64,000 bases of DNA from the IMG/VR virus record IMGVR_UViG_3300027772_001865, positions 1-64,000 of that record; one strand, written 5' to 3'. Made by a program: the position numbers and the translations under genes. The DNA comes from a virus. Taxonomy: Duplodnaviria > Caudoviricetes. The notes below the pieces were generated by a model. The model was given only the letters and a program-made list of their open reading frames with translations. It searched no databases and was not told where the DNA came from. Below, one piece after another: positions 46,218 through 63,332 of the stretch (position 1 is its first letter; each line of letters opens with the position of its first letter).

Positions 46218-46319
46218 ATGAACTGGCTCAAAAACTTATACAATAGAATTCGTTTAGAAATTCGATACCGCAAGAAGCTAAAAGAACTGCGCAAACGAGA
46301 TCCATTTATCTACAAATGA
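46218..46319 (+). CDS. 33-aa basic micro-protein MNWLKNLYNRIRLEIRYRKKLKELRKRDPFIYK
   Basis: Own translation. It fills the gap exactly, starts 1 nt after the upstream stop and overlaps the carbamoyltransferase start by ATGA. The C-terminal PFIY recalls small proteins found beside carbamoyltransferases. Confidence 0.7.
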   Translation: MNWLKNLYNRIRLEIRYRKKLKELRKRDPFIYK

Positions 46320-47791
46320 AAATACTAGGAATTTCAGCAGGGTTTCACGATGCTGCCGCTACTGTGATTAACAATGGTTATATTCTTTTTGCCGGACATA
46401 GTGAACGATATTCAAAACAAAAGAACGATGCCAATATACACCCAGATCTACTTAAGGATGCACTTGTGTATGGTGTAGATCATGTTGCGTATTACGAGCG
46501 TCCCTGGCTTAAACAACTGCGACAGTGGTATGCAGGACAGGGCCTGGAGTGGGATAAAGTCACGCTGAATCAAGTGTTACAGCAACAGGTCCCAGCGGCT
46601 ATGTTGTCACATCCTACCACAAGTACACATAATCATCACTTGTGCCATGCGGCAGCAGGATTTCAAACCTCATCCTACGATCGTGCCACAGTGGTGGTAA
46701 TAGATGCAGTAGGCGAGTTTGACACAATAACAATATGGGCAGCAGAATATGATTCAAAAGGCATGGCAAAGTATCGAAAACTTTGGTCACAGCATTATCC
46801 ACATTCAATTGGACTATTCTACTCTGCGGCTACTAGCAGTGTTGGCCTACGCCCACTAGACGAAGAATATATCCTAATGGGCATGGCAGCGTATGGTGAT
46901 GCCACAGCGGCTGTGGGCATGCAAAAATTAGTCAAAGACTCTGACCAAATACGATTCTGTGACAATCTACACACCGGCATTGACAGTAAATATCTGCAGG
47001 ATCTAGAAGAATTTGATATTGCTGCTGGCACACAAGCCATTGCAGAACAACTAATCATGAGTGTGATGCGCAGAGCACGTGACTTCAAATGGTCCAGCAA
47101 TTTGGTGTACATGGGTGGGGTTGCTCTTAACTGTAGCGCCAACAGAAATTTAGGAAAGTTCTTTGATAACATATGGATTATGCCTTGTCCTAGCGACGCT
47201 GGCAGTAGCCTGGGCGCGGCAGCATTGGCTTATGGGAAACAGATACATTGGACCAATGCCTATCTGGGCCATGATATCCCTGGTGATTATCCTGTGGATG
47301 ATATTATCACTGTCCTGCTACGTGATAAAATTGTGGGCGTGGCCAGCGGTCGTGCCGAATTTGGGCCCAGGGCTCTGGGCAATAGATCACTATTGGCAGA
47401 CCCCCGTGGCGCAGACATAAAGGCACGTGTAAATGATATCAAACGACGACAGCAATTCAGACCATTTGCGCCTGTTATTTTAGAAGAACATGCTCATAAC
47501 TATTTTGACATGCCTTGCAGATTCCCCAACAGTAGATATATGCAAGTTGTTGCTCGCTGTATACATCCTCACATATTTCCTGCTATCATTCATTATGACC
47601 ACACTAGTAGGGTACAAACAGTACCACCGGATGGTTCTGGAATAAGACAACTGCTAGAAGCATGGTACCGGGCAACAGGTTGTCCCATGTTGCTCAATAC
47701 TAGTCTAAACATACGAGGCGAACCCATGGTAAATGATCGTGCAGATGCTGAACGCTTTGAAGAGTTATACAATGTAAAGGTATGTTCATAA
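46316..47791 (+). CDS. Carbamoyltransferase (NodU/CmcH/TobZ family)
   Basis: ILGIS..FHDAAA, ERYSK.K, HHLCHA, SIGLFYS, MGMAAYG, GGVALN, DAGSSLGAA, EFGPRALGNRS, RQQFRPFAP, SRVQTV, and LLNTSLN. Confidence 0.93.
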   Translation: MKILGISAGFHDAAATVINNGYILFAGHSERYSKQKNDANIHPDLLKDALVYGVDHVAYYERPWLKQLRQWYAGQGLEWDKVTLNQVLQQQVPAAMLSHPTTSTHNHHLCHAAAGFQTSSYDRATVVVIDAVGEFDTITIWAAEYDSKGMAKYRKLWSQHYPHSIGLFYSAATSSVGLRPLDEEYILMGMAAYGDATAAVGMQKLVKDSDQIRFCDNLHTGIDSKYLQDLEEFDIAAGTQAIAEQLIMSVMRRARDFKWSSNLVYMGGVALNCSANRNLGKFFDNIWIMPCPSDAGSSLGAAALAYGKQIHWTNAYLGHDIPGDYPVDDIITVLLRDKIVGVASGRAEFGPRALGNRSLLADPRGADIKARVNDIKRRQQFRPFAPVILEEHAHNYFDMPCRFPNSRYMQVVARCIHPHIFPAIIHYDHTSRVQTVPPDGSGIRQLLEAWYRATGCPMLLNTSLNIRGEPMVNDRADAERFEELYNVKVCS

Positions 47792-47792
47792 T

Positions 47793-49073
47793 ATGGACAA
47801 TAAAAGAGTTTTCCCAATTAACACCAACACAGGGTGTTTGTTAAAATGGGCATGGTCCACAGTGTTTCTTCGCCAGGGCACAAGTTCCAGTTGTCATAGA
47901 ACAGATCAAGCACCAATACCCCCAGGAGATTTTTCCAGTTTTCATAACTTGCCTAACAAAGTTGCCGCACGTGAATTGATGTTGCAAGGCGGTTGGCCAC
48001 AGGGCGGATGTCAGTATTGTGAAAAGATTGAAGCCGCAGGAGGCATGAGCGATCGGCAGTATCAACTGCATGCCGGACATGACCATGACCGTACTCCAAG
48101 AGAGCTACTTCAAGATCCCACACAAACAGAAGTTGTACCCACCATACTAGAAGTGTATTTTAACAATACCTGCAACATGAGTTGCTTGTACTGTGGTAGT
48201 CATTTTAGTTCAAAGTGGGAAGAAGAAAACAAAAGGTTTGGCATGTACGAGAACCAGCCCAAGACCGTGGCATTTGGCTGGGACACCAAACAACCAGACC
48301 TAGACTATGATAAGATGCTAGCTGATTTCTGGAAATATCTCCACGATAAAGATAGATATCTACACATTAGACAATATCAAATTGCTGGTGGCGAGCCATT
48401 TCATCAAGTGGAACTGGAAGCCAGTATAGACTTTTGGGATAATCATCCCAATCCAGAACTGACATTTAACTTCATTACCAATTTAAAAGTCACTCCCAAG
48501 AAGTTTCAATCCACAATTGACCGACTGGGTCGCATGGTTGATCAAGGCAAGCTCAAACGTGTGCAAATTAGTTCAAGCCTGGATGCCTGGGGACCGCAAC
48601 AGGAGTACGTGCGTTGGGGATTAGATTTGGCAGAGTGGCAGGAAAACTTTGAATATTGCCTGGACAAGCCATTTATTCAACAGTGTATCAATTCAGCCAT
48701 CAATCCATTGACTGTAAAAACCATGCCCGAGTTGATTCAGAAAATGAATGACTGGAATGATCGATGTTCAGACAACAAGCAAATTGCCTACAGCTTTATG
48801 ACTGTGATGGCACCAAATTGGATGGATCCTGCTATCTTTGGCGCAGGCGTGTTTGAACAAGACTTTGAACAAATACTTGCCGCCATGCGAGAAAACACTG
48901 ACATGGAACGCAGTGCCAAACATCACATGGAAGGCATTGGCCGACAAATTGCTGCCGCGCCACGCAACATCGAGTTGATTAACGGATTAAAAGATTATGT
49001 TACTGAACTTGATCGCCGCAGAGGAACCCAATGGCAGGAACTATTTCCCTGGCTTGATCAGGACTGGAAATAA
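47793..49073 (+). CDS. Radical SAM protein (domain 8), N-terminal twitch type
   Basis: GCLLKW...SSCHR...CQYCE, CNMSCLYC, and AGGEP. Confidence 0.9.
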   Translation: MDNKRVFPINTNTGCLLKWAWSTVFLRQGTSSSCHRTDQAPIPPGDFSSFHNLPNKVAARELMLQGGWPQGGCQYCEKIEAAGGMSDRQYQLHAGHDHDRTPRELLQDPTQTEVVPTILEVYFNNTCNMSCLYCGSHFSSKWEEENKRFGMYENQPKTVAFGWDTKQPDLDYDKMLADFWKYLHDKDRYLHIRQYQIAGGEPFHQVELEASIDFWDNHPNPELTFNFITNLKVTPKKFQSTIDRLGRMVDQGKLKRVQISSSLDAWGPQQEYVRWGLDLAEWQENFEYCLDKPFIQQCINSAINPLTVKTMPELIQKMNDWNDRCSDNKQIAYSFMTVMAPNWMDPAIFGAGVFEQDFEQILAAMRENTDMERSAKHHMEGIGRQIAAAPRNIELINGLKDYVTELDRRRGTQWQELFPWLDQDWK

Positions 49074-50341
49074 GGCGCCCACTCGGGCACAACATCTGTC
49101 AGCTTCTTTTTGCTCACAGTGTCTTCAAGTCGAATATGCTCAATGAACTGTGGCAGATAAGCAGGTTCATATGGTGTTGATTCTATCACACTGATCACAC
49201 GATCCACCAACTGGGTATAGTAAGTTTCATATATGGCCGTTGTGTTTGCAAAACGTTCTCGGCCTGCACGTAACCTACTCAGTGCAATTTCACGTAGCTC
49301 AGGAGGAACAGCACCTTGACCCAGGTGATCAACTCTAAACACAGGACTGATGTTGATAAAGCTACCAGCTACATCTTCAGGATTGTGCGGACCAAACCCT
49401 GACTCGTAACACCAGTTGATAAAGTCCATGGCACTGAACACATTTATACCAGTTAACACATAGTTAACAACTGTGCTGATGTATTCATGATCCATCAGTT
49501 CCAGGGCATTAACACTTAGGCTGGCCCATTTGGCACCTCTACGTTGGTACTCAATTACATCACCAATGCCATCAATGCTGACATTGTAGATGACCTGTTT
49601 GAACTTACGAAACTTTTCATCCAGTGCAGATGCACTGCTACTAGCATTTGTCAAAAGTGTAATGAGAATATTTTTGGCTAGATCTTTTTCTATTAGATAG
49701 TCCATTATTTCATGTACTTGGCTTTGCAGTGCAGTTTCACCGCCAGTGAAGTTGATCAATTGTACTTTGTCCAGCACTGAATAAAAGTCTGGATCAGCCA
49801 CATTGAGTACAATTTTTTCTTGTTTCTTCATCACTTGCACTTCAAATGTTTGACGCTTGCTAGATGCACCACCAGCACACATCACACAAGAATAGTTGCA
49901 GTAATTGCTGGGATAATAGTCCAGGGTAATAATGTCATGCACATTGTAGTCATCATTGATGATTTGGTAAACTTCTGACACAATGTCTGACTGCAAAAAC
50001 TGTGCAAGAAATTTATTATTCTGTTGCCTAGGGCTTGACACGCCAGACTTTTCGTTATAACTACAAGATCTGCAGTCATAGATGTCGTGAAACTTGTCTT
50101 GAATAAAATCTTGTCGCATTTGTTTCCATACTGGTGCATTGCGTGTGTCATGTATACTGTCGTTTGTGATGTTCCATTTGTTCATGTCATCGGCCATGAC
50201 AATACTGCAAGGACGCACACTGTTGGGCATGCCTTCTTGAGCAATGGGAATGACATTGTTGGTTTGATAAAAAGCCCCAAAGAATGGATACAAACAAATG
50301 TGCTCTCCTAATTCTTGATATATGTTGTCTAAGTCGTTCAT
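49058..50341 (-). CDS. Radical SAM protein (domain 9), N-terminal twitch type, divergent
   Basis: ICLYPF...VRPCS...CRSCSY, CNYSCVMC, and TGGET. Confidence 0.85.
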   Translation of the reverse strand: MNDLDNIYQELGEHICLYPFFGAFYQTNNVIPIAQEGMPNSVRPCSIVMADDMNKWNITNDSIHDTRNAPVWKQMRQDFIQDKFHDIYDCRSCSYNEKSGVSSPRQQNNKFLAQFLQSDIVSEVYQIINDDYNVHDIITLDYYPSNYCNYSCVMCAGGASSKRQTFEVQVMKKQEKIVLNVADPDFYSVLDKVQLINFTGGETALQSQVHEIMDYLIEKDLAKNILITLLTNASSSASALDEKFRKFKQVIYNVSIDGIGDVIEYQRRGAKWASLSVNALELMDHEYISTVVNYVLTGINVFSAMDFINWCYESGFGPHNPEDVAGSFINISPVFRVDHLGQGAVPPELREIALSRLRAGRERFANTTAIYETYYTQLVDRVISVIESTPYEPAYLPQFIEHIRLEDTVSKKKLTDVVPEWAPYFQS

Positions 50342-51396
50342 TGAATTCTTTCTTTACAAAGAGCAATCAAGCTGGGATTGAAATTGATTGTGCTATCGGG
50401 CACGTCTACATGTTGTTTATAAATTGCCAGTAGATTGTTTACAGTAACAGCATGAAGCTCATGATCAACATTGCCAATTACATCGTGTTCAGTATAATTA
50501 CTCCAGGTGCCCCAATCTTCTAACCTATTGATAACTCCTCGGAATTGATAGCGATAACACAGGTCTACAAAATTTTGCATGTCGTTGTAGTTGTCTTTTT
50601 GCAGGACAAATTTTAATAGTACTTCTGACTTGGTCTGATCACACAATGTTCTCAAGTAATCAAAGTTCTTGATTAGTTGTGTAAATGTTCCGCCAAGCCT
50701 CACTTGCTCGTACACCTCAGCTGACCCAGCATCTATACTGATAAAATACTGTGTGATGTTGTTAATAATAGGAGAATCAGTCAATTGCTTTTCTAACAAC
50801 AGCCCGTTTGTAAACAGTCTTATGGTTTGATTTTTCTTGGGTACAAATCTATGTATCAACGGGCGCATGATGTGGCTGGCCAATGGGTCACCATTTCCGG
50901 ACATTACTATGTGTATCGGGTGCTCAAACTTTTCCAGCATGTCCACCAGGTGGTTGACCTGTGCTAGTTTACGATCAAAATCGCTGCCACTGCTGAGCAT
51001 CACAGCAGATGGTCTGCAACTGGGGCATCGTAGATTACAGCTTTCATCTATGTTGATTGAAAGATAATAGTCCTGTTGATGCACAGATTTATCCAGTACA
51101 CCACACCGGTCTACAGCACAGTGAGTGAACTCTCCAGAATCTATGTCTTGTTGCAATAGTTTAGCAGACGGACTAACCCATACTTGATTTAGGTCAGTAA
51201 AATCAGATATGTTGCCCACTGATATTGGCAACCAAGCTTCGCATGAACACACAAAGCATTCTCCAGTCCAGTCTACCACAAGTTGAGTTGATGGAGCATT
51301 GCAATGATTGTTGATTTTTAATTTTAAATCTTTGTTTCTCAGTATTGATTTATAACTGTGTTGGTTTTGTATGGGAATAGTAAATTGATAACTCAT
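50338..51396 (-). CDS. Radical SAM protein (domain 10), N-terminal twitch type
   Basis: HCNAP...DWTGECFVCSC...GNI...CAVDRC, CNLRCPSC, and SGNGDP. The ATG at 51396 overlaps the upstream stop (the track start is 51411). Confidence 0.85.
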   Translation of the reverse strand: MSYQFTIPIQNQHSYKSILRNKDLKLKINNHCNAPSTQLVVDWTGECFVCSCEAWLPISVGNISDFTDLNQVWVSPSAKLLQQDIDSGEFTHCAVDRCGVLDKSVHQQDYYLSINIDESCNLRCPSCRPSAVMLSSGSDFDRKLAQVNHLVDMLEKFEHPIHIVMSGNGDPLASHIMRPLIHRFVPKKNQTIRLFTNGLLLEKQLTDSPIINNITQYFISIDAGSAEVYEQVRLGGTFTQLIKNFDYLRTLCDQTKSEVLLKFVLQKDNYNDMQNFVDLCYRYQFRGVINRLEDWGTWSNYTEHDVIGNVDHELHAVTVNNLLAIYKQHVDVPDSTINFNPSLIALCKERIQ

Positions 51397-52409
51397 TTGC
51401 ATCCCCCGCACATGTTGTTACATGCTACCAATCTGCCTTCAGCATACGTGGGTTTGTCCCAGGTCTTTTCAACTTGATCAAACCATTCTAAACATTCAGC
51501 CATGGTGTACTTCAATGCGTTGTTGCGTGATATCAGCGGACGCAGTTGTGTGTTGACCACATTGAGATAGTTGGCACTACCGTGCCCGTAAGTTTTAGGG
51601 TTGAATCCAAGATAGCAACACGGATACACTTCTCCAATGCTGTTGATATAAACTGTTTTGGTTTCAATGGCCTCACAAGAAATAGGAGTTTTAATTGGCT
51701 CAGGACATCCTGCAACATCTGCTATTGCATCAGGCCTAGCATACCGTTCATAAATGGTGTCAAAGTTTGTGAGATCTGTTGTGCCCATCACAAACACCAG
51801 TTTCTTATCAGAATCAAATACAGGTCCTACATTGCGTTTGTGATCAATCAATTCAAACCGTTCAAACCCCATGTCTATGCTGAGTTGCTCGGCTTGAGTT
51901 TGCTGATGTCTATTGTGATCAAAGTCAATCATTTTCCAAATGGCATGTCCGCCGGCAGCAATGAAAGTCTGTGCATTTCGAATCACAGTTGAATACATGG
52001 TATTGCGTCTGTATATGCTGTGAGTATCCTCTAATCCGTCTAGACAAAAATATACCACGGCTAGTTTGGCCAGCTGTGTCCAGAACACACGATCCCTGGC
52101 ACCGCCGTTGGTGTTTATAGTTATAAGAGCCTGATTGCCGAGATGTTGTTTGAAATATTCAAGTATTGGTATGGCGTCAAAGTTCATAACAATATCGCCG
52201 AAGTTACCATTTATTGTTATTTTATCAAGATGATTTAAAAACACAGGAGTGAATATCTTCTGTGCTTCTGCCAAGGTCATTGAGTGTTCTTCATAGCCAT
52301 CATTGTGCGGATATCCGCACAAGTTACGAGGACACTTGGGACATGCAGCATTGCACTCGCTGGATATTTCCAGATGTACTTTCCTAATGTCCTCTACTGC
52401 GTACAACAT
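51393..52409 (-). CDS. Radical SAM protein (domain 11), canonical order with C-terminal SPASM/twitch
   Basis: N-terminal HLEISSECNAACPKC. C-terminal ISC...YINSIGEVYPCCY...CNNMCGGC. Confidence 0.9.
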   Translation of the reverse strand: MLYAVEDIRKVHLEISSECNAACPKCPRNLCGYPHNDGYEEHSMTLAEAQKIFTPVFLNHLDKITINGNFGDIVMNFDAIPILEYFKQHLGNQALITINTNGGARDRVFWTQLAKLAVVYFCLDGLEDTHSIYRRNTMYSTVIRNAQTFIAAGGHAIWKMIDFDHNRHQQTQAEQLSIDMGFERFELIDHKRNVGPVFDSDKKLVFVMGTTDLTNFDTIYERYARPDAIADVAGCPEPIKTPISCEAIETKTVYINSIGEVYPCCYLGFNPKTYGHGSANYLNVVNTQLRPLISRNNALKYTMAECLEWFDQVEKTWDKPTYAEGRLVACNNMCGGCK

Positions 52410-52412
52410 GCT

Positions 52413-53438
52413 TTACAGGTATGTTTCTAGGCCGCCACGACGACGTAGATCTTGTGTACAGCAAGAGATGCCACCATCCCAGAAGTAGCTGTGGCGCAGT
52501 TCGCTGATGATGGGGTTAATTCTATGCTTTTTGCAATAGTCAAACACTTCTTTGTTGTATGAACTAAAGATAACGTTCTCTTCGTCTAGTGCCAAGCAGT
52601 TGACATCAAACACAGTTTCGGCAACAAAGCCGGTCCATTTGTTTAGATACTTGTCCACAAAGTCTGTAAACTCAGCAGTAGGAGTTTGCCCCTGTACGTA
52701 CCAAGCCCCTGGGCTTTGCTCGTACTTGAACTTGCCCACTTCCATGGCAGCCCAGATTGAGCTATCCCAGATCTTGCATACGTCCCAGCCCGGGAAGTCT
52801 TTGGCCAGATCCAAGTTAACATCGTGCTTGCTGGATAACAACACACCGGGCTTGAGAATAGCAAACACAGCATCGCCGTGACCGTCTGTGATAGCTTCGT
52901 GAATACGATAACCTTCGCCTAGTACATTGTCCACAATCCACTTGGTTTGATCAGGACGCAAAAAGTCTGAGTTGTCAAAAAACACATCACGACCCACACG
53001 CACAATACAACTGGCACTTGCACCGTTTAATATACAATCTTCGTCCCAGCGACTATTGTGTGGATTAACAACTTGATCACCAAAGTCGGCACAGATATCA
53101 TCCAGCTCTTCCATGTTGAGCACACGCAGTAGTTTGTCGCCTAATGTGATTTGCCAATCGCGTGGTGTCAGTGGCGGCAGCGGAGCACCTCCTCCTTCGG
53201 TCTGATGCCAGATAAACGAGTCTTTACCAGGCAAGTTAGGGCGACGTACTCGAGCACCGTACTTCTCAATTGTCTTGCTCAAGTTGTCAAGATCTTCTTC
53301 AGTTTCGGCAAGAATTTGTTGTAGTTGATTACGCACTTGAGCATTGTCAATGAAATCAAAGTAATCTGGTGAGTAGGCGCGACCCACAATGACCTCTTCA
53401 AGAGGTTGCCAGCTGGTGTAAGAGTTAATTTTGTTCAT
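52413..53438 (-). CDS. Amidinotransferase family protein (glycine/inosamine-phosphate amidinotransferase-like)
   Basis: NSYTSWQPLEEVIVGR, TPRD, RVGRDVF, GHGDAVF..LKPG, FDVN, and DGGISCCTQDLRR, which contains the catalytic Cys. Confidence 0.85.
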   Translation of the reverse strand: MNKINSYTSWQPLEEVIVGRAYSPDYFDFIDNAQVRNQLQQILAETEEDLDNLSKTIEKYGARVRRPNLPGKDSFIWHQTEGGGAPLPPLTPRDWQITLGDKLLRVLNMEELDDICADFGDQVVNPHNSRWDEDCILNGASASCIVRVGRDVFFDNSDFLRPDQTKWIVDNVLGEGYRIHEAITDGHGDAVFAILKPGVLLSSKHDVNLDLAKDFPGWDVCKIWDSSIWAAMEVGKFKYEQSPGAWYVQGQTPTAEFTDFVDKYLNKWTGFVAETVFDVNCLALDEENVIFSSYNKEVFDYCKKHRINPIISELRHSYFWDGGISCCTQDLRRRGGLETYL

Positions 53439-54579
53439 GTAAGTTCTTTAATAAAGTATTTAATCTGTCCAGTTTCGTGGATTGAAATAACTGCTGGTTG
53501 TGCAGTATATCATCACAACAGCGTAGGAACATGCCGTGTGGATCTTGTTGGATGAGTTCAAGAGTATGTTTTACTTTTAACCACCGTTTAGTGTTGTCAG
53601 TTTCTAAATCGTATGTGTTGTCCAATACACTATCAAATGTTCTGTAACCTAGATCACGTAGGCATTGCAAACTACCTGTGGGTGCAACTAACACAAATGG
53701 TTGTGCATTCTTTATGGGTTTGAATGTTTTTTCTGTCAGAAATGTGCCACCTGAACCATCAGCATCAAAGTGTGTTTCGATTACAACATTGAAGTATGCA
53801 TCTGTATAATGTTCAGGCACAGTGAGTGCATGGTTGTTGTGTTCATCCACTGTTAACGTATCGCATCGGTAGGGTCCGTTCTCTATGAATACATCTACAG
53901 CAACATTAGGCAGGCGTTCTATTGGATTGTCTGCAGGATTATCGCCTAAAGGTAGTTCAGTGTTGTAACTCCATAAACTCTGTGCCAACATATTACTTTG
54001 TAGCAGGTCTGCCATTACAACTGCTCGCCACCATTTGTGTGTTCTGCTTAGTGCAACAAATGTGTATGGTCTTGATCTAGTATGAAACTCAACAGGTGCT
54101 ACATACTGATTCCTGCGCCAAAACAACAATTCATGATCAGGAAAATACGCAAAGCCTGGAATTGATTTGGCCGCGGTGTTGCCTGAAACAAACCTATAGC
54201 AGTTGATAGACAAGTTATGTTGCGCACACAAGTAATCCAATCGTAGTTTGATGTTGTGCGGATTATCGCCTTCGTGATAGTAAAATATCACTGTGACCAG
54301 GCCTTGCTGAATTCTTTGCAGTAATGAGTCAGCAACAAGAGCAAAGTAATCAATAGCAAAATCAAAAAAACCCAAGCCAATTACATAATAGCCATTACCT
54401 TGGGTGATTAGATTGTATTGGTACCCATGATCGTCCATGTGCCCGAATAATTCTGCAGGAGTGGTGTGCGGCCAATGTTGTCCAAACTCTCTCCAGGCCT
54501 GTGTGTACGGTCTAGCTTGGTGTTGTGCTAGCGCAGGATACGGACGACCTTTAACAATTGAATCAGCTACGAAGTTCAT
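53425..54579 (-). CDS. GT10-like (TEK motif) glycosyltransferase candidate C
   Basis: FVALSRTHKWWR...FNVVIETHF...FLTEKTFKPIKNAQPFVL...LRDLGYRTFDSVLDNTYD. Confidence 0.5.
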   Translation of the reverse strand: MNFVADSIVKGRPYPALAQHQARPYTQAWREFGQHWPHTTPAELFGHMDDHGYQYNLITQGNGYYVIGLGFFDFAIDYFALVADSLLQRIQQGLVTVIFYYHEGDNPHNIKLRLDYLCAQHNLSINCYRFVSGNTAAKSIPGFAYFPDHELLFWRRNQYVAPVEFHTRSRPYTFVALSRTHKWWRAVVMADLLQSNMLAQSLWSYNTELPLGDNPADNPIERLPNVAVDVFIENGPYRCDTLTVDEHNNHALTVPEHYTDAYFNVVIETHFDADGSGGTFLTEKTFKPIKNAQPFVLVAPTGSLQCLRDLGYRTFDSVLDNTYDLETDNTKRWLKVKHTLELIQQDPHGMFLRCCDDILHNQQLFQSTKLDRLNTLLKNLHEQN

Positions 54580-55684
54580 TCAGCATGTTAATCAGTTCTG
54601 GCCACAGGATGTTTTCAAGACCATTGCCATAAAAGTGTTCAAAGTTGTGTTCTACAATTGGCAAGCAAGCGCGATGTATTTGTTGACGTTCTGCTACACT
54701 AAGATTATCTAGATCTTTAAGTAGTTTAGTAACCTTTTCAACACGCTTGATGTCATCCGTTTCTTCATCATAGCTTTCGTCAAATACATCACCAAAGGTT
54801 CGGAATCCATAATTACGCATGTACTCCAAACTGTGTGCAGGAGCTACCAACACAAACGGCATTTCTAATGCAATTGCTTTGAATGTTTTTTCGGTAATGT
54901 GCAGTCGTTTGCCAAAGTACACAGTCTCTGTAGGCACATACACCAAACTGTCTTGTGCTTCTGTGTAGTTGCCTAACCAGCACGATGTCATAATTTGTGT
55001 CTCTTCTCCAGCAAACAATCTTGGCAACTCTGCTGTCAAGAACACTTGCTCTATGTCAGGATATATGTTATTATACTTGAGTGCTATTTGCGAAATGTCC
55101 ACATGCTCATAAGGACATATTCTAGGAGCCGAAATATAATTGTTGTCTAATTCATGTTTGAATACATTATACAAAAACAAAACTCTATGATCGCGTTTGC
55201 CCGCAACAATACGATTTGGGCTCATGAACGTATGAGTAGGCGATCTATCAGCGGCCCTGGGAATCAGAAAAGTTTTGTCGTAGCCGCGAAACCAATCTTT
55301 GCATGCCCATCCGTGATAAAAGTAGTAATGAGGCTTCCAACCATATATATTATTAAGTTCGTCAACGTATTCTCCCCTTTCACTAACAATCACATGTCCA
55401 TTGACACCTCTGCTCTCTGCGTTAGGCGGTTTGCTCCAATATTGAAGATCTTCAGTCCTAAGTTTAACATCGTCAAACAGCGATTTATGAAGATCCAGGT
55501 GTATGGGTTCTTGATCATGCAAAAATACAAAATCAATTTCTTGAATATCATCTCTACCGTAGTTGAACAATGCATCCGGGTCACTGCGTCCTGGCGGATC
55601 ACAAAAAAATGTTCTGGTGCCAGGGATGTGTTGATTAATCCAGGGCCAAAAGGTATTATTATAAATTTCGTCTATTCTAATCAT
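54563..55684 (-). CDS. GT10-like (TEK motif) glycosyltransferase candidate D
   Basis: FMSPNRIVAGKRDHR...YVPTETVY...HITEKTFKAIALEMPFVL...MRNYGFRTFGDVFDESYD. Confidence 0.5.
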   Translation of the reverse strand: MIRIDEIYNNTFWPWINQHIPGTRTFFCDPPGRSDPDALFNYGRDDIQEIDFVFLHDQEPIHLDLHKSLFDDVKLRTEDLQYWSKPPNAESRGVNGHVIVSERGEYVDELNNIYGWKPHYYFYHGWACKDWFRGYDKTFLIPRAADRSPTHTFMSPNRIVAGKRDHRVLFLYNVFKHELDNNYISAPRICPYEHVDISQIALKYNNIYPDIEQVFLTAELPRLFAGEETQIMTSCWLGNYTEAQDSLVYVPTETVYFGKRLHITEKTFKAIALEMPFVLVAPAHSLEYMRNYGFRTFGDVFDESYDEETDDIKRVEKVTKLLKDLDNLSVAERQQIHRACLPIVEHNFEHFYGNGLENILWPELINMLNELRS

Positions 55685-58600
55685 GTTTGATATTTTTTAT
55701 TCAGGTAAGAAGCCGGGATTGTTTGCTCATGAGTGCGAGGCTGATAGTATTGAGCATGCACAACAATTGAGTCGTACAAGGTTCTTTTGGTTTGTAAATT
55801 ACTTATCTGACTACACAGGCTTTGATTTTCTTTGGGAGCCTGTACCGTGGCAAGCACAACAACGACACGCATGGTTAGACCAGTATCAATTTGATTCGGG
55901 TGTGTATCTTGTTCCTAAAAAAGGATATGCAGAAACAAATTATCATGCAGAGCCTCGAGTACATAGATTGCCTGATATTGATTATTGGCACATACCCAAA
56001 TGGATTGATCCTGCCAGTATAGATTTTAGATGGGCGCCCGATCCCACTGATCCTCCTTACATATATGAGTTTCCTGTAGAATGGGATTGGGATAGAGTTG
56101 GTGGCCCGGAATATAGAATCCCAGGAGCAACTGATCGCAAGTATATAGACACATTTGTTACTCGCACACAGTCAGACAGAGACATGTGGAAAGTGTACGA
56201 CAATGTATCCAGCACTGATACTGTATTCAATTGGCATCCAAATCCGTTTGATCCGCCAATGATATATGTGTTTGGCAATCAGCATTGGCCAGCAGAAATA
56301 CGAGCCAGTGTAGAATATCATGTACCAGGTGCCACTGTAAAAAAATACATGGACGATATACGCACAACACGATTGTCAGACAAGAACAAGTTTACGTGTT
56401 TGTATCCTTGTGAGTTTGACTGGTCCTGGGAACCAAATCCAGGAGATCCGCCCTACATCTATGTTTTTGGAAATCAGTGGTGGCCTGCAGAAAAGATGGC
56501 CACAGTTGAATATCATGTGCCGGATGCAATAGAGCGTAAGTTCATGGATCAGCCTGCGACCTTACTAAGCAACAAAAACAATTGGTCGGTGCCCGATAAT
56601 GTTGATCCATTAAGTATTGATTATTCATGGGTACCTGATCCTGGAGATCCACCTTATACCTATGTGTTTGGTAACCAGCACTGGCCTGGAGAAATAATGC
56701 CTACTGTGGAATATCATGTTCCGGGCGCAACTGAATGCAAATACATAGATTATATTCGGATAACACTTACAGAATGCATGGATAACTGGGAAATACTGGA
56801 AGAAATTGCACATGATGAATGGGATTGGAGTTGGATACCAAATCCTTTAGATCCTCCTTACATATATGTGTTTGGCAACCAATGGAACCCACCAGAATTT
56901 AAAGCCAGTGTCAAGTATGTTGTCCCGGGCGCCTCAGAAGTCAAGTACATGGATCGTCGAACACGTAGACTTCCGACTCCAAAATTGTTCAGACATAATC
57001 TAGCTGTTAGCAAGTTTGATTATTCCTGGGAACCAAATCCGTTTGATCCTCCCATGATGTATGTGTTTGGTAATCAGTGGAACTCAGCTGTACTAGAACC
57101 CACAGTGGTGTACAATGCAGGAGGCAACGAAATCAAATATGTAGATGATATCATTGCCACAGTAGCACAAGATGTCAGCGCCTGGGAGTTGTTGGATGAC
57201 ATTGAATCATTTGATTACTCATGGAGACCCAATCCTACAGATCCTCCTTACATATATGTGTTTGGTAATCAATGGCTTACCCCCGAACAGCGTCCTGCAC
57301 TAAGATACTGTATACCAGACGCAACTGATATCAAGTACATGGATCATCCGCGAGCACAACGTCGTGGTGATCACACACGCTTTGTTCAGCACTATCCGGC
57401 ATCGTTTAACTGGTCCTGGGAACCTGAACCTGGCAGCCCACCTTATAACTATGTGTTTGGTAATCAGTATTATTCTGCAGAAGTCATGCCCACGATAGAA
57501 TATCGCATGAGTGGCGCAACAGAACGCAAGTACATGGATATTCCTGCACAATTATTACCGCATCACAGTAATCATTGGCACACACTTGTGGACTGTGAAT
57601 GGGACTATACATGGCGCCCAGAACCAGGATCGCCGCCTTACATCTATGTGTTTGGTAATCAGTGGTGGTCAGCAGAAAAGATGCCTACATTAGAGTACCA
57701 TATGGTCGGTGCCACTGAACGAAAGTACATGGAAGGCCCATTGGCTACACTACCAATAGACATGTCTAATTGGAGTATTCCAAAACATATTGATTTGACT
57801 GACATGGATTTTTCATGGTGTCCTGATCCTGGCGAACCGCCTTACATCTATCAGTTTGCAACACAACACCAAAAGACTGGTGGCCCACAGTATCGCATGC
57901 CAGGCGCTACAGAGTTCAAGTATGTGGACATGATGCGAGCTGAAGTTAAGAAAGAAGCCGCCCCTATATTTGAAATAGATCACTTGGATGGTGCCGCAGG
58001 GCAAATTCCTGATGTAGTTAAGCGAGTGCGTTACTTTGACAACTATCGTGATACGCTAATACGCTTGGCCAAGAGTCTAGTAGGTGAATATGAACATGTA
58101 TGGGTGTGTAGCAGTATATGTGATTACACTGACTTTGACTTTTCATGGCATCCAGAAACATGGCAATCAACAATGTTGCATGTGTTTCCATCAGACAAAG
58201 AAAAGTTTGGAGACACATTCTACATGCATGTGCCTACATTTGCTGAACGTGCAGAAAAGAAAGCCTTGTTGGAATGGTATAGTGTAAACTATGTGCCACG
58301 CCGGAGTGTGCCACGTAGACCCATGCCAGTGATCCTACACACAGCAGATTCGCATGTAGATGCAGTTAAAAACACAACATGGGCAGGACCACTTGCTACA
58401 TTTACCACAACAGATTATGTTCCTGGCAACATGATTACTGTTCCGCTCTGGCGTAAAGAAACCAAAACTATTGTTCCATTAAGTGCAGGTGCATCAAGTG
58501 TTATTGTACCAAGAGTAGCAGTAGGCGACGTTCGTACACAGTTATATGATTATGCTTACATAGACAAAACACGTCGTATGTTAAAAGATCATCCCCTGGA

Positions 58601-59294
58601 CATTGTGTTTATTTCGAATGGCGAACCCTATGCTGAGTTTAACTATGAACACTTGAAGTGGGCTGTGCAAATGGAAGGGTTAGACTGCAATCACATTCAT
58701 CATTCAAAGGGTGTGAATGGTCGTGTGGCAGCATATCAAGCAGCCGCTAGATTAAGCACAACACCTTGGTTCTTTGCTGTGTTTGCCAAGCTAGAAGTTG
58801 ATCATAGATTTGATTGGTACTGGCAACCTGATCGTATGCAACAACCCAAGCATTACATCTTCCACGCACACAATCCTGTGAATGGTCTAGTGTATGGACA
58901 CCAGGCCATGATTGCATATAACAAGAAGATGACATTAGAAAACACAGGAGAAGGTCTGGACTTTACCATGGATCAACCACACGAAGTTGTGCCTATCATA
59001 AGTGGCACAGCCAACTACACTGAATCACCTTGGATGGCCTGGCGTACAGCATTCCGCGAAGTACTTAAACTCAAGCACAGCCTGCCAGATGTAGAAAACG
59101 AATACAGACTCAACATGTGGCTCAGCGATGCCGGTGAAGTTAAAAATGCAGAGTGGAGTCGCTACGGAGCAGAGGATGCTGTAGAGTACTACGACGAAGT
59201 AGGTGGGGATTTTGCGGCTCTCAAGAAGAGCTACGAATGGGATTGGCTTGCGACGTATGCGTTTATGAAACGCAGTCTAACACCTGATCGCTGA
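55683..59294 (+). CDS. 1203-aa repeat protein: GT-like N-terminal fragment, ten ~66-aa W/P/Y-rich repeats, and a C-terminal GT-A-like domain lacking DxD
   Basis: Repeats FDWSWEPNPGDPPYIYVFGNQW...VEYHVPGATERKYMD. The C-terminal DIVFISNGEP...KGVNGRVAAYQAAA...NPVNGLVYG...AWRTAFRE aligns by eye with the 32907 protein. Confidence 0.8.
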   Translation: MFDIFYSGKKPGLFAHECEADSIEHAQQLSRTRFFWFVNYLSDYTGFDFLWEPVPWQAQQRHAWLDQYQFDSGVYLVPKKGYAETNYHAEPRVHRLPDIDYWHIPKWIDPASIDFRWAPDPTDPPYIYEFPVEWDWDRVGGPEYRIPGATDRKYIDTFVTRTQSDRDMWKVYDNVSSTDTVFNWHPNPFDPPMIYVFGNQHWPAEIRASVEYHVPGATVKKYMDDIRTTRLSDKNKFTCLYPCEFDWSWEPNPGDPPYIYVFGNQWWPAEKMATVEYHVPDAIERKFMDQPATLLSNKNNWSVPDNVDPLSIDYSWVPDPGDPPYTYVFGNQHWPGEIMPTVEYHVPGATECKYIDYIRITLTECMDNWEILEEIAHDEWDWSWIPNPLDPPYIYVFGNQWNPPEFKASVKYVVPGASEVKYMDRRTRRLPTPKLFRHNLAVSKFDYSWEPNPFDPPMMYVFGNQWNSAVLEPTVVYNAGGNEIKYVDDIIATVAQDVSAWELLDDIESFDYSWRPNPTDPPYIYVFGNQWLTPEQRPALRYCIPDATDIKYMDHPRAQRRGDHTRFVQHYPASFNWSWEPEPGSPPYNYVFGNQYYSAEVMPTIEYRMSGATERKYMDIPAQLLPHHSNHWHTLVDCEWDYTWRPEPGSPPYIYVFGNQWWSAEKMPTLEYHMVGATERKYMEGPLATLPIDMSNWSIPKHIDLTDMDFSWCPDPGEPPYIYQFATQHQKTGGPQYRMPGATEFKYVDMMRAEVKKEAAPIFEIDHLDGAAGQIPDVVKRVRYFDNYRDTLIRLAKSLVGEYEHVWVCSSICDYTDFDFSWHPETWQSTMLHVFPSDKEKFGDTFYMHVPTFAERAEKKALLEWYSVNYVPRRSVPRRPMPVILHTADSHVDAVKNTTWAGPLATFTTTDYVPGNMITVPLWRKETKTIVPLSAGASSVIVPRVAVGDVRTQLYDYAYIDKTRRMLKDHPLDIVFISNGEPYAEFNYEHLKWAVQMEGLDCNHIHHSKGVNGRVAAYQAAARLSTTPWFFAVFAKLEVDHRFDWYWQPDRMQQPKHYIFHAHNPVNGLVYGHQAMIAYNKKMTLENTGEGLDFTMDQPHEVVPIISGTANYTESPWMAWRTAFREVLKLKHSLPDVENEYRLNMWLSDAGEVKNAEWSRYGAEDAVEYYDEVGGDFAALKKSYEWDWLATYAFMKRSLTPDR
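56020..57930 (+). repeat. Ten tandem degenerate repeats, period about 195-201 nt
   Basis: TATGTGTTTGG(C/T)AA(T/C)CA recurs near 56265, 56460, 56661, 56865, 57060, 57255, 57450 and 57645, with two more diverged end units. Confidence 0.9.
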
Positions 59295-60372
59295 TGTATT
59301 CAACTTCGAGGTCTGTTAATTCAGGATAGATAGGCAAGCTGAGTACACGCCGAGCAAGACTAGAACTTGCTGCCAACATATCTGGACCTGGGTATGCACG
59401 ATACAATGGCATTTCGTGCAAGGGATTTACATAATGCACTCGTGTTTCTATTTTGCGTAAAGCAAGATTTGCTCTCAAGGTATCGCGGCCATCAACATCT
59501 ATAACAAACTTATGCACAGCATGATTGTGTGCATTAGAGTCGTTGATCAAACAACGTATGTCTGCATGTTTGAAACGCTCGCACCAATGATTGGCTATCT
59601 TTTGTCTACGTGCTTGCCACTGATCAATGTGTTTTGCTTTGACCAGCATGTGCGCACAGTCTAGTTCACTCATGCGGCTGTTGGTACCAGGATTACGATG
59701 CGTAGGCTTACCATTGTCTCTCCAAGCTCTTGCATATTCTGCTAGATCCAAATTGTCCGTGACCACAGCACCACCGTTGCCATAACAAGCAAGGTTCTTC
59801 ATGGGATCAAAGCTAATTGCGCCACCACCTCGCCCGGTTCTTTGACCATCTGCTGCCAGCCAATGTTGTGCGGCATCCTCAATTATAACAGTATCGTGTC
59901 GTAGCCATTCATTCCATGCACGAAGATTACCGTGATGAGTCATTGACGCACCATACAAGCCAACTAGCACTACAGCTTGATAACTCAAGTCATGTGGAAT
60001 TTTATTAACATCTATTAGGCCATGTATGTCTGTGTCAATGATGTGTATATCCCAGCCTGCCCGTATAAATGCATTGGCAGTGGCCACATAGGTCATTGAA
60101 GGAATTAATGCAGTAGGAGGATGTGGCACAGGAGATTCCATGGCCCAGTAACTGGCTAGAATCTCAAGTGCGTGGGTACCTGAGTGACAAGTTACTGCAT
60201 AGCGCACACGATTTTTTTTAGCAAGCCAAGATTCAAACTCAACAGTGTTGTTACCGTTCATGAGTTGGCCACTTCGAAGTACTTCGTCAGTAGCGTCTAA
60301 AATCTCTGTGCGGAGATTGTTATACTGCTTTCGGAGACCAGTAAACGGAATTGTTAAGCCAGTTGAAGTAAT
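59263..60372 (-). CDS. DegT/DnrJ/EryC1/StrS PLP-dependent sugar aminotransferase; true start uncertain
   Basis: AVTCHSGTHAL, YVATANAF, IIEDAAQH, SFDPMKNL (PLP Lys), GNGGAV, and GTNSRMSE. The frame is open upstream of the track ATG (60261) and encodes the family's N-terminal IPF..LRKQY segment up to a stop at 60388-60390. Confidence 0.88.
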   Translation of the reverse strand: MTSTGLTIPFTGLRKQYNNLRTEILDATDEVLRSGQLMNGNNTVEFESWLAKKNRVRYAVTCHSGTHALEILASYWAMESPVPHPPTALIPSMTYVATANAFIRAGWDIHIIDTDIHGLIDVNKIPHDLSYQAVVLVGLYGASMTHHGNLRAWNEWLRHDTVIIEDAAQHWLAADGQRTGRGGGAISFDPMKNLACYGNGGAVVTDNLDLAEYARAWRDNGKPTHRNPGTNSRMSELDCAHMLVKAKHIDQWQARRQKIANHWCERFKHADIRCLINDSNAHNHAVHKFVIDVDGRDTLRANLALRKIETRVHYVNPLHEMPLYRAYPGPDMLAASSSLARRVLSLPIYPELTDLEVEYISDQVLDCVS

Positions 60373-61288
60373 TTTGAAATCCCTCTTCTACATCCACTTT
60401 GGGATCATAACCTAGAATTGTTCTGGCACGGTCAATGTTTAATGCACCACGTGACGGAAAGTCTGCGTCTTTGTCTCGGCACTCAATAGTACCCTTGCCA
60501 ACAATTTTAACAATCATTTCTGCGGCTTCTAACAAGCTCACACTATGTGATTTAGTAATGTTATAGGTGCTGTTACGACTCATGATACGAGTAGCAGCCG
60601 CCACAATGCCATCTGCGGCATCATCCACATAGGTAAAGTCTAGCGTCTCCCCTGCCCCATTAACTCGGAGAACGCCTCCTCGCATGGCTCCGAGCATAAA
60701 TTTTGCCACCACTCGGTCTTCCACATCCAAGGGGCCGTATACAGCACTAGGCCTAATAACAGCGTAATCAAAAGCGCCGCGGCGATGGTAGTCTTTGACA
60801 ATGTCTTCTCCAGTTAATTTCATAATGCCATATTGGCCAATGGGTTTACAGTCGTAGTCTTCTTCTACTTGATCTTCAAAGTCACCATATACCATTGAAC
60901 TTGAAATGTACACAACACGTTCCACACCGTGCTTTTTGGCACTCTCGCAAACGTTGATCAAGCCCTCCATCATCACACGACTACCCCAGGCAGGGTTGGC
61001 ATTGACAACTTTCTGTCGGGGAAAACTTGCCATGTGGATGATAACTTCAGGTTTGTGTTTGGCCACTAGCCAATCAAAGTTGTCAGCATCGGTAATATCA
61101 ACGTGATAGATATTTTTGCCTGATATCTTCTTTAGCCGTTCCGCCATCAAGTAGTCAAGTTCTGCTTGTGGAATGATTCCGTAGTTGGTACGTGTGTCTG
61201 TTATGATCACTTCGTGTTCTAGAGCTTCTAATCGTTGTACCACGTTGTGGCCAATGAGCCCTAGGCCGCCTGTTACTAATATTTTCAT
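60320..61288 (-). CDS. NAD-dependent NDP-sugar epimerase/dehydratase (extended SDR)
   Basis: MKILVTGGLGLIG (GxxGxxG), ISSSMVYG, YGIMK (YxxxK), and LDFTYVDD. The ATG at 61288 overlaps the upstream stop (the track start is 61312). Confidence 0.92.
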   Translation of the reverse strand: MKILVTGGLGLIGHNVVQRLEALEHEVIITDTRTNYGIIPQAELDYLMAERLKKISGKNIYHVDITDADNFDWLVAKHKPEVIIHMASFPRQKVVNANPAWGSRVMMEGLINVCESAKKHGVERVVYISSSMVYGDFEDQVEEDYDCKPIGQYGIMKLTGEDIVKDYHRRGAFDYAVIRPSAVYGPLDVEDRVVAKFMLGAMRGGVLRVNGAGETLDFTYVDDAADGIVAAATRIMSRNSTYNITKSHSVSLLEAAEMIVKIVGKGTIECRDKDADFPSRGALNIDRARTILGYDPKVDVEEGFQNYFNWLNNSVYWSPKAV

Positions 61289-61614
61289 TTGTTGCCCCAC
61301 TTCAATGTCCAAAAGGTTTGATCCTGTTCACTTAATCTTGCCATGATACGATACAAGTGCCCATAACTAGAAATATCTGCTTGACGAGTCCAGTAAGGTT
61401 TTTCCACAGCATGTTCCATGATGAACTTACCAGCATCTGATTCCTGCCACTCATATATGGGTTGTGCCACATACAAATCAGGATCTTCTACATCGCCCAT
61501 GCGGATCTCATGTACACACACGTCACAAAACTTTACAGCTCTATCTCCAATGATTTCAACCCGTTCGGGTTGCCATTGCTTGTATTCGTTTGGGTAAGTG
61601 CTTGTTATTGCCAT
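61285..61614 (-). CDS. Hypothetical protein (109 aa)
   Basis: ATGA coupling to the epimerase and a promoter motif just upstream. Contains MGDVEDPDLYVAQPIYEWQ. Confidence 0.7.
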   Translation of the reverse strand: MAITSTYPNEYKQWQPERVEIIGDRAVKFCDVCVHEIRMGDVEDPDLYVAQPIYEWQESDAGKFIMEHAVEKPYWTRQADISSYGHLYRIMARLSEQDQTFWTLKWGNK

Positions 61615-61619
61615 ACACT

Positions 61620-61628
61620 AGTATAGCA
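61620..61628 (-). promoter_or_regulatory. Extended -10 promoter TGcTATACT
   Basis: Minus strand TG-C-TATACT ends 5 nt before the ATG at 61614. TTGCTC lies at the 17-nt -35 position. Confidence 0.5.
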
Positions 61629-61634
61629 CAGGGA

Positions 61635-62306
61635 TTAGTCTCGAGCAACCAAGTCGGCTGCCATTGGGAAGATTGCTGTGATGGCTTGAGCACAAGCTCG
61701 TGCAATAGCCTGATGTTCTTTTTGTGTGCCGTTGGCACTGCGCAATTCAATAAAGTGAATCCAGGAACGCAATGTGCCATTCATGTACAGTCGGCTTTCA
61801 ATCAAGCCTTCGGGTAACACAGCTCGGGCTTGTTCTTTGGCAATGCCGTTGGCAATGGCCCAGTCGTATTCTCGTTTGGCAGCATAAATGACTCGTTGTT
61901 GAGCACGGTACCAATCATTTTGTAGCAGTTGATCATCAACTTCGACGCTGTTTTGTCTATTTTTTGTGTCTTGCAATCTAGCTTCTCTTGTAACAAAATT
62001 GAGATCTTTCGTTGGGTCAGCATATCGCTGACTGAACTCTTGGAAACTGAAACTTCTGTGTCGCAAGATTTGTCTTGCAATGTCTCTTGTTGTGGTGATT
62101 TCCATGCATGCGGAGACCATTTCGAGTGGGCTCCAGTGCTGGTGCTTGACCAAGTATCTGATAAGTTTGTCTGATGTATCTGTGTTGAGCTGATTGGAGG
62201 GATTGCTGACACGGGCGCAATACGCAATAAGTTCCTGCGCATTGCCGAGGCCCATATCTGCAAATTTCTCTGTTGGCTGTGAATAGGATAGTAATTGAAC
62301 ATCCAT
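61635..62306 (-). CDS. thyX: Flavin-dependent thymidylate synthase
   Basis: ARVSNP, HQHWSPLEM, RQILRHRSFSFQEFSQRY (RHRx7S motif), EQARAVLP, and NGTLRSWIHFIELR. Confidence 0.95.
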   Translation of the reverse strand: MDVQLLSYSQPTEKFADMGLGNAQELIAYCARVSNPSNQLNTDTSDKLIRYLVKHQHWSPLEMVSACMEITTTRDIARQILRHRSFSFQEFSQRYADPTKDLNFVTREARLQDTKNRQNSVEVDDQLLQNDWYRAQQRVIYAAKREYDWAIANGIAKEQARAVLPEGLIESRLYMNGTLRSWIHFIELRSANGTQKEHQAIARACAQAITAIFPMAADLVARD

Positions 62307-62308
62307 GT

Positions 62309-62316
62309 TATTTATA
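62309..62316 (-). promoter_or_regulatory. T4-type late promoter motif TATAAATA (minus strand)
   Basis: Exact consensus overlapping the upstream stop, only 2 nt before the thyX ATG. Confidence 0.5.
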
Positions 62317-62614
62317 GTCCGTTGAGGAGTTTGTCGGTTTCGGGTTGTAAAAGTTTGGCTACTTCGCTTACATCAACGACGAAGTCAATGTCTTTGACTT
62401 CGTCGCCAAATTCAGTTAGTGTACGGGTCAAGACAATTTCTAATTCGTCCATGTCAAGACCTTGTTTTTTAAGTGTAGCTAGATTGATAGTCCGTTGTTT
62501 CTTGCCATGCAATCTAATTACAACTTTTTTAATGCACTCAAGTGGGATTTCAGTCTTGTTTACTTCTTCAATGATGTGTTCCCACCTGGCCAGGAACTCA
62601 TCACTGAACTGCAT
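62312..62614 (-). CDS. Hypothetical protein (100 aa)
   Basis: Tiles between its neighbours. Sequence WEHIIEEVNKTEIPLECIKKVVI... Confidence 0.75.
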   Translation of the reverse strand: MQFSDEFLARWEHIIEEVNKTEIPLECIKKVVIRLHGKKQRTINLATLKKQGLDMDELEIVLTRTLTEFGDEVKDIDFVVDVSEVAKLLQPETDKLLNGL

Positions 62615-63332
62615 CTGCTGACACTACCTTGGGTGGACGACCACGACGTGGGGCGGTGGTAGTAGGTTGTGCCTGCTCTTTTACTGCTGGTGTAAAGTTG
62701 TTTAAGTTCACAGCTGGATACATGCGCTGAGCATCTTTCTTCATTCTAGCCGCTTCGGCAATCATGCCCTTGGCTTCTGATTCCATGCGTTTGGCCTGTG
62801 ACAGCATGTTCATAGCAAGTGATTTGTCATCTAGTGCACCATCAGTTGATGCAAGCAACGGTTCAGGTTGTTGTGCATTACGCTCTTGGCCACGTTTGAA
62901 TTCTGCTTCAGCTTTCCGCTTTACAGCAGGATCAACTAGGCCGGTGCTTTTATCAATTTCACGCAGGCGATTGATAGCGGCCTCACCTGTTTCCATCTCT
63001 TTGATGATACGGTTGAGTTCGTCTAGCTTGACATTGCTCTGAGCATTGGGTGTCACAATGACTTGATTGCTAGGAATCTTCTTGATCATGCCCTCACGAT
63101 GCAAGGCTTCCAGTTGTGGACGGCCATCTGGCAATACTCCGCGATGCAGGGCATCTGCCAAGTTGGTGGCCTGTTGACCCACTGGGCTTTCCAATGTTTT
63201 CATGATTGAATCATGAATATGTGTTGGCAAAGTCTCTGGATAAATCACAAGGCACATATGATCCTCGCCAGGTACTTCTCTAAATAAAATTGCAACCTTG
63301 CGGTCTCCGTGTCTTCCGATGTGTTTAAGCAT
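62601..63332 (-). CDS. Hypothetical protein (243 aa) with a C-terminal coiled-coil and basic RRGRP tail
   Basis: AGGAG SD upstream of MLKHIGRH, and overlapping neighbours. Confidence 0.8.
   Translation of the reverse strand: MLKHIGRHGDRKVAILFREVPGEDHMCLVIYPETLPTHIHDSIMKTLESPVGQQATNLADALHRGVLPDGRPQLEALHREGMIKKIPSNQVIVTPNAQSNVKLDELNRIIKEMETGEAAINRLREIDKSTGLVDPAVKRKAEAEFKRGQERNAQQPEPLLASTDGALDDKSLAMNMLSQAKRMESEAKGMIAEAARMKKDAQRMYPAVNLNNFTPAVKEQAQPTTTAPRRGRPPKVVSADAVQ

Follow-up and report, generated by a model that had tools for sequence, protein, structure and literature searches.

A stretch of 64,000 nucleotides from a virus of the class Caudoviricetes (positions 1 to 64,000 of IMG/VR record IMGVR_UViG_3300027772_001865; hereafter the window) contains, at positions 55683-59294 on the plus strand, a gene for a protein of 1203 amino acids, in which an N-terminal cap domain is followed by ten repeat units and a core that ends in a glycosyltransferase (GT)-like domain. 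We find that this repeat protein is intact and under selection, and that it belongs to an uncatalogued family carried almost exclusively by phages. As judged from profile comparisons, its unit is the 'FDxxWxP plus β-hairpin' element found behind the DxD strand of this GT-A-like fold, multiplied in series. The core may be a working or ligand-binding transferase set behind a spacer of variable length, a reading that we put forward tentatively.

The open reading frame starts with ATG and runs through 1203 codons with no internal stop. The original prediction of ten Trp-, Pro- and Tyr-rich units of about 66 amino acids holds: W.P[DNE]P anchors lie at amino acids 117, 184, 249, 316, 384, 449, 514, 579, 644 and 712 (period 62-68), the repeat region contains 4.8% Trp, 11.4% Pro and 7.1% Tyr, and a hidden Markov model (HMM) of the unit, trained on these very units, matches each of them with independent E-values of 1e-27 to 1e-34. 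Their mean pairwise identity is 42% (range 28-61%). Tandem Repeats Finder detected no repeat at the DNA level in this gene, indicating that its unit copies are old; nor did it detect one in the gene of a 30-unit relative (L048). All 370 distinct units collected from relatives have the Trp, and Pro (99%), Asp (96%), two Tyr (95-96%) and Lys (94%) are strongly conserved within the consensus FDFSWxPDPxDPPYIYxFGxQW...YxVPGATxxKY...W...D. Degenerate copies of FDxxWxP, which had also been predicted for the N-terminal, penultimate and C-terminal parts of the protein, are found at amino acids 47-53 (FDFLWEP), 818-824 (FDFSWHP) and 1043-1049 (FDWYWQP). The gene is laid out as follows, units 1 to 9 being listed on the evidence of the anchors and the unit HMM.

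55660..55666, plus strand: the word TATAAAT, lying 16 nt ahead of the start codon of the repeat gene; weak, T4-type late-promoter-like
55683..56012, plus strand: N-terminal cap domain, amino acids 1-110; minimal GT-A/nucleotidyltransferase-like α/β domain, with FDFLWEP at nt 55821-55841
56013..56213, plus strand: repeat unit 1, amino acids 111-177; short-hairpin type
56214..56408, plus strand: repeat unit 2, amino acids 178-242
56409..56609, plus strand: repeat unit 3, amino acids 243-309
56610..56813, plus strand: repeat unit 4, amino acids 310-377
56814..57008, plus strand: repeat unit 5, amino acids 378-442; positional orthologues in the relatives L002, L003 and L007
57009..57203, plus strand: repeat unit 6, amino acids 443-507; positional orthologues
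57204..57398, plus strand: repeat unit 7, amino acids 508-572; positional orthologues
57399..57593, plus strand: repeat unit 8, amino acids 573-637; positional orthologues
57594..57797, plus strand: repeat unit 9, amino acids 638-705; positional orthologues
57798..57992, plus strand: repeat unit 10, amino acids 706-770; short-hairpin type, the most conserved unit
57993..58562, plus strand: linker and middle domain, amino acids 771-960; degenerate GT-A-like half domain, with FDFSWHP at nt 58134-58154
58563..59291, plus strand: C-terminal domain of GT-A/nucleotide-diphospho-sugar-transferase fold, amino acids 961-1203; F1034-A1035-K1036 at nt 58782-58790, FDWYWQP at amino acids 1043-1049

The middle domain is the first part of a 424-amino-acid core that is invariant in the family, and it is there that the unit finds its best match. 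In hhalign the profile of the 370 units aligns with amino acids 35-116 of the core, which hold FDFSWHP and the following hairpin (95.5%, E 1.4e-8), and with the FDWYWQP region of the C-terminal domain (61%, E 8e-5). Conversely, the HMM of the C-terminal domain matches every unit in one register, at positions 82-104. The N-terminal domain is a paralogue of the middle domain (phmmer domain E 5e-6), and in P0145, one of the relatives, the latter aligns with roughly the first 110 positions of the C-terminal domain HMM (independent E 3e-5). Together these matches indicate that the unit is an amplified sub-fragment of the GT-like fold, as had been proposed.

Structure prediction, which had been suggested for the array, was run with AlphaFold2 (AF2) on the N-terminal 443 amino acids (cap plus five units; 53 alignment rows from viral loci). 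In the resulting model (predicted local distance difference test, pLDDT, 92.6; predicted template-modelling score, pTM, 0.76) each unit is an all-β block of three to four strands with pLDDT above 95, and the array is predicted with high confidence to be one continuous packed structure. The model of the C-terminal 424 amino acids (m4d61af4aa6e0), aligned with 51 diverse relatives, reached pLDDT 95.2 and pTM 0.90. Its C-terminal domain is a complete GT-A domain with the Rossmann-like α/β/α fold of nucleotide-diphospho-sugar transferases, and Foldseek with the core retrieved GT2-type enzymes with probabilities up to 0.99.

With cap and repeats as query, a piece larger than a single unit, Foldseek found no solved counterpart in the PDB (best E 1.3), BFVD returned two uncharacterised family members only, and the VIA wide and VIA second look structure searches gave matches to the cap only. 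In the ESM Atlas the C-terminal domain hit viral hypothetical clusters only and the repeats gave no usable named match, while a PDB sequence search with the core profile returned nothing. No model of Pfam, PHROG or NCBIfam matches the repeat protein or its paralogue encoded at 32907-33839 of the window, and none of Pfam matches any of 52 relatives. A hit of PF09271 (LAG1-DNAbind; 26.6 bits) was rejected as an artefact of summed weak repeat matches, no single stretch passing. On P0001 and relatives (e.g. P0002, P0006, P0019) this model reaches its gathering score through such summing only; it stands as a precomputed annotation on several relatives and looks like a false positive.

The relationship of the C-terminal 250 or so amino acids to the GT-A-like 32907 protein, and the change of its ILIDGDN into FAVFAKL with loss of the DxD, had been noted from the start, and both are upheld by the alignments. 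Direct BLASTP between the two gives E 5e-5, the 32907 protein matches the C-terminal domains of relatives with E-values down to 3e-16, and the profiles of the two clades, FAK and DGD, align in hhalign over 221 columns (99.9%, E 4e-32). The clades are bridged by gp348 of Ralstonia phage RsoM2USA, itself a DGD protein, which matches the 32907 protein with E 4e-32 and the repeat protein with E 2e-15. ILIDGDN aligns with FAVFAKL, and the DGD of the 32907 protein, its orthologues, gp348 and gp350 stands opposite F1034-A1035-K1036. The third position is Lys in 78 of 78 FAK-type C-terminal domains from viral contigs (the other three rows of this 81-row alignment are DGD-type paralogues) and in 304 domain hits among 301 collected proteins, a count in which the non-Lys letters come mainly from cap, middle-domain and repeat-unit hits.

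Every other hallmark of the superfamily is kept, namely SxxEP after strand 1 (with E981), GVxG, NGLxYG, D1093, WRxAFRExxK and W1146, and the invariants of the family in this domain are E981, F1060, Y1071, G1072, D1093, R1125, E1126, K1129 and W1146. By sequence order, a candidate counterpart of the xED base on the following helix is R1125-E1126, a pair that never varies and lies in core helix 337-353; D1093 does not vary either. K1036, R1125 and K1129, all invariant, are candidates for basic residues that contact the diphosphate. The ratio of non-synonymous to synonymous substitution (dN/dS) against four relatives is 0.02-0.13 and similar for the repeats, the middle and the C-terminal domains, the values being rough and dS often saturated. 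On this pattern of conservation, the FAK replacement is not decay. The first interpretation of the gene had joined fragment amplification to a catalytically dead enzyme: the former stands, but the latter finds no support, given the invariant Lys, the retained hallmarks, the low dN/dS (0.02-0.13) and the existence of GT-A enzymes that lack a DxD.

A search with the core collected more than 2683 clusters at 90% identity and 809 at 50%. Nearly all members come from metagenomic or viral contigs, many of 100-360 kb, and the ESM Atlas labels them viral. Among 185,579 species genomes the family was met in four contigs of metagenome-assembled genomes (MAGs; two Haliscomenobacter, one Pacearchaeota, one Fischerella), which probably represent phage DNA caught in the binning and are too weak a basis for naming a host; no close relative was found in cellular genomes. 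The two contigs binned with a Haliscomenobacter sp. MAG (L083 and L084, 148 and 183 kb), probably phage contigs, carry cores that are 68% identical and give a weak lead to a host in the Bacteroidota. RsoM2USA is the only cultured phage with relatives, all annotated as hypothetical. In this phage (L082, 215-222 kb, genes 348-353) a mini-cassette homologous to window positions 31020-35224 has two DGD-type GT-A-like proteins around one radical S-adenosylmethionine (SAM) gene; it also encodes homologues of the proteins at 31020 and 31807, again all annotated as hypothetical. We found no name, profile or dedicated paper for the family.

Members range from about 430 amino acids (core only) to about 2700, with 2-16 units in the closest 120 proteins and 0-30 in 80 viral loci; length rises by about 71 amino acids per unit above a base of about 475. 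In L002, L003 and L007, units 5-10 have positional orthologues at 72-98% identity and units 1-4 are replaced or shuffled. Unit 10 is 88-98% identical in these three and L073, with dN/dS of 0.02-0.04. The gene is a recombination mosaic, its N-terminal and C-terminal parts having separate histories: L002 is 95-98% identical in the C-terminal half (units 5-10 and core) versus 37-60% in the N-terminal part (N-domain and units 1-4), and L003 shows the reverse trend. The two relatives with about 30 units and about 2700 amino acids (L048, 3773-11926; L036, 3512-11641) have higher-order blocks of long-hairpin and short-hairpin units, an 'Lsss' block being repeated about five times in L048 and 'Ls' many times among the 30-unit relatives. 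Such blocks suggest block duplication, the repeat at the DNA level having already decayed. Taken together, the orthologous units, the mosaicism and the blocks indicate that arrays change by insertion and deletion of whole units or blocks and by recombination, under purifying selection.

The company that the gene keeps was counted within 10 kb of a relative in the 80 viral loci. A carbamoyltransferase is present in 68 of them, a homologue of the window gene at 62601-63332 in 55, GT10-like 'TEK' proteins in 53-54, a short-chain dehydrogenase/reductase (SDR) in 48, radical SAM genes in 46 and a DegT aminotransferase in 44. In 66 of its 68 loci the carbamoyltransferase sits upstream of the relative and on its strand, and in 14 it is directly adjacent (gap of 10 nt or less), every one with at least 8 units; where the phage has a long array, the two genes are translationally coupled. 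This enzyme (46316-47791 in the window) is 62-89% identical across loci L022-L062, while the cores of the repeat proteins there are 40-60% identical. A predicted complex of carbamoyltransferase and 424-amino-acid core scored 0.00, which says nothing on binding either way. The window shows no evident step that involves a membrane, a flippase or a polyprenol link, so the cassette looks soluble.

The full record, of which the window covers the first 64 kb, is 81 kb long and by CheckV's estimate 23% complete, so the whole phage genome should be about 350 kb. Near-complete copies of this DNA occur in 15 freshwater metagenome studies from 2017-2022; in DNA run X1 the joints inside the array have sides of 21-30 nt and are unreliable. 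The left part of the window encodes T4-type baseplate and virion proteins, and beyond about 27 kb there is a dense cassette with ten radical SAM genes, the carbamoyltransferase, a DegT aminotransferase, an SDR epimerase/dehydratase, ThyX and several unassigned proteins. As originally predicted, the repeat gene runs opposite to all its neighbours, the flanking blocks (49058-55684 and 59263-63332) both being on the minus strand. It has the same orientation in the close relatives L012 and L017, and in distant relatives it points in the direction of its neighbours. Its start codon overlaps back to back with that of a divergent GT10-like gene (54563-55684, minus strand; CATG at 55682-55685), and its 3' end overlaps a convergent DegT gene by 32 nt (59263-59294). 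With zero intergenic DNA at both ends, promoters must sit inside coding sequence. TATAAAT is not enriched across the window (13 observed versus 10 expected), and sigma-70-like promoters are at chance level there. The word stands 10-30 nt ahead of four start codons in all (55660-55666, 8316, 27890 and, on the minus strand, 62310). Three metatranscriptome libraries from freshwater or rivers (X16-X18) have contigs with exact fragments of the repeat gene and its neighbours (53400-61400); this is a hint of expression, for contigs show neither transcription nor strand nor level, and DNA carry-over is possible.

What, then, might the protein do? In the reading that we tentatively favour, the core would be a transferase that needs no metal and is assisted by Lys/Arg, or would at least bind nucleotide sugars or glycans. 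It would bind an activated sugar or related donor, probably transferring without a metal, and would serve the soluble glycan cassette of the phage, that is, the carbamoyltransferase, the GT10-like proteins, the DegT aminotransferase, the SDR epimerase and the radical SAM enzymes. The array would be a rigid spacer or scaffold setting reach, spacing or valency, and no remnant of a decayed enzyme. There is precedent for such a core: GT14 and prokaryotic GT6 enzymes lost the DxD independently and use basic side chains instead, and WrtF needs neither metal nor basic residues (PMC7185993, PMC12595478). WrtF is also a top structural match, and at the level of sequence the invariant Lys in place of the DxD, with the Arg-Glu kept in the following helix, resembles this group. 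Several points weigh on the other side. The C-terminal domain has no canonical DxD after strand β4, and the residue after strand β2, the usual base binder, is not acidic (HSKGVNG). E1126 or D1093 as putative catalytic base and K1036 as putative metal site are placed by sequence order alone; the activity, ligand and partner of the core are predictions; the rigidity of the array is taken from AF2 confidence only; and conserved polar residues would be expected equally in a pure binding module. By analogy with known systems, the number of units (0-30) might further serve as a single-chain molecular ruler for the length, spacing or site of the cassette's glycan, which we think unlikely.

A dead pseudo-glycosyltransferase at the C-terminus, in a protein that is as a whole a multivalent glycan binder or scaffold with a site in each aromatic unit, would also explain the replaced DxD and the clearly degenerate cap and middle domains. 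The units keep an invariant Trp and conserved Asp, Ser, Lys, Tyr and Gln, and such a composition is typical of sites that bind sugars. However, the FDxxWxP residues occur also inside the globular domains as parts of the fold, so that conservation in the units may be structural; the polar signature that the domain shares with the DGD paralogues is fully kept, with Lys 1036 invariant; and relatives with no repeats keep core and cassette. Binding-only proteins of GT fold do exist, such as vaccinia H3, which is among the structural hits, and the chaperone COSMC (C1GALT1C1), a non-catalytic pseudo-glycosyltransferase of GT-A fold that lost its DxD, as the phage core did (PMC7185993). COSMC, however, lost the xED base too (PMC7185993), whereas the phage family keeps an invariant R-E, within the FRE motif, in the corresponding helix region. 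In the phage core the DxD alone is lost, the other polar invariants are kept and dN/dS is 0.05-0.12, and we regard a dead scaffold as rather unlikely.

Still less probable, in our judgement, is a fibre or decoration protein of the virion, with a β-repeat shaft of variable length and the GT-fold end as a lectin-like receptor-binding or attachment domain. The gene does lie in a variable region behind baseplate and fibre genes, as do the host-recognition clusters described for aquatic phages of T4 type (PMC7029224). Its orientation sets it apart from its neighbours, a late-promoter-like TATAAAT word precedes it, and it is a mosaic with shuffled N-terminal units; its length differs greatly among relatives. 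Against this, no structural PHROG matches it; the C-terminus is the most conserved part and the N-proximal units the most variable, the opposite of the pattern in typical fibres; it is tightly linked to the carbamoyltransferase, with translational coupling in 14 loci; and there are short forms of about 430 amino acids without a shaft. The remaining explanation, that the repeats are a poly-acceptor substrate with a modification in every unit, either glycosylation or cross-linking by the neighbouring radical SAM enzymes, perhaps by the protein's own C-terminal domain as in glycogenin, we hold to be very improbable. Ten radical SAM genes next door, the aromatic-x-Trp and Ser/Thr positions in each unit and the presence of glycogenin among weak fold matches would suit it. 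Yet relatives with no repeats have 2-4 radical SAM genes per locus and the longest arrays none within 10 kb (partly a flank artefact), and radical SAM gene number is negatively related to repeat number (rho -0.69, a relation that stems in part or more from the fixed flank of 10 kb). Moreover, the units are predicted as well-packed β structure with buried aromatics, and their invariant positions are fold-core residues only.

Seen beside known systems, the repeat protein, read as a core with a spacer, keeps features of its own. The metal-independent GT-A enzymes (GT14 C2GnT-L, GT6 BoGT6a and WrtF) have no detectable sequence relationship to it and share no Pfam or CAZy-type family match; it has a Lys at the DxD position itself, and a repeat array that those families lack. 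The DGD paralogues (the 32907-33839 protein and RsoM2USA gp350 and gp348), uncharacterised so far, belong to the same superfamily, with SxxEP, GVxG, NGLxYG and WRxxFRExxK in common, but they are single-domain proteins of 230-320 amino acids that keep the DGD, have neither middle domain nor repeats, and are paired with a radical SAM gene. In O-antigen assembly, coiled-coil proteins that act as molecular rulers (WbdD, WbbB and their Klebsiella O4/O7 homologues) keep the functional modules of a glycan-assembly protein apart by a rigid spacer, the defined length of which sets product size (PMC11231755); the likeness to the putative phage spacer is an analogy of design only. The spacer of WbdD and WbbB is an oligomeric coiled coil, and these membrane-associated proteins work in ABC-transporter pathways, whereas the phage spacer would be a single-chain β-repeat array in a protein with no membrane part seen. 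As the phage array is predicted to be all-β and no coiled coil, only the principle of design could be shared.

Large aquatic phages carry the family in abundance (809 clusters at 50% identity), and it offers a clean natural case in which an internal piece of an enzyme fold has given rise to a new repeat domain. In addition, its GT-A clade has an invariant lysine in place of the DxD metal site, and the DGD persists in sister paralogues encoded by the same genome, which provides a ready comparison for the evolution of metal independence. If it is true that the array sets the length or reach of a glycan, it would be a new kind of ruler, the β-repeat counterpart of the O-antigen coiled-coil rulers, which would have arisen as a piece of the enzyme's own fold was duplicated in series, and it would give a handle on the products of the large radical SAM and sugar cassettes of giant phages.

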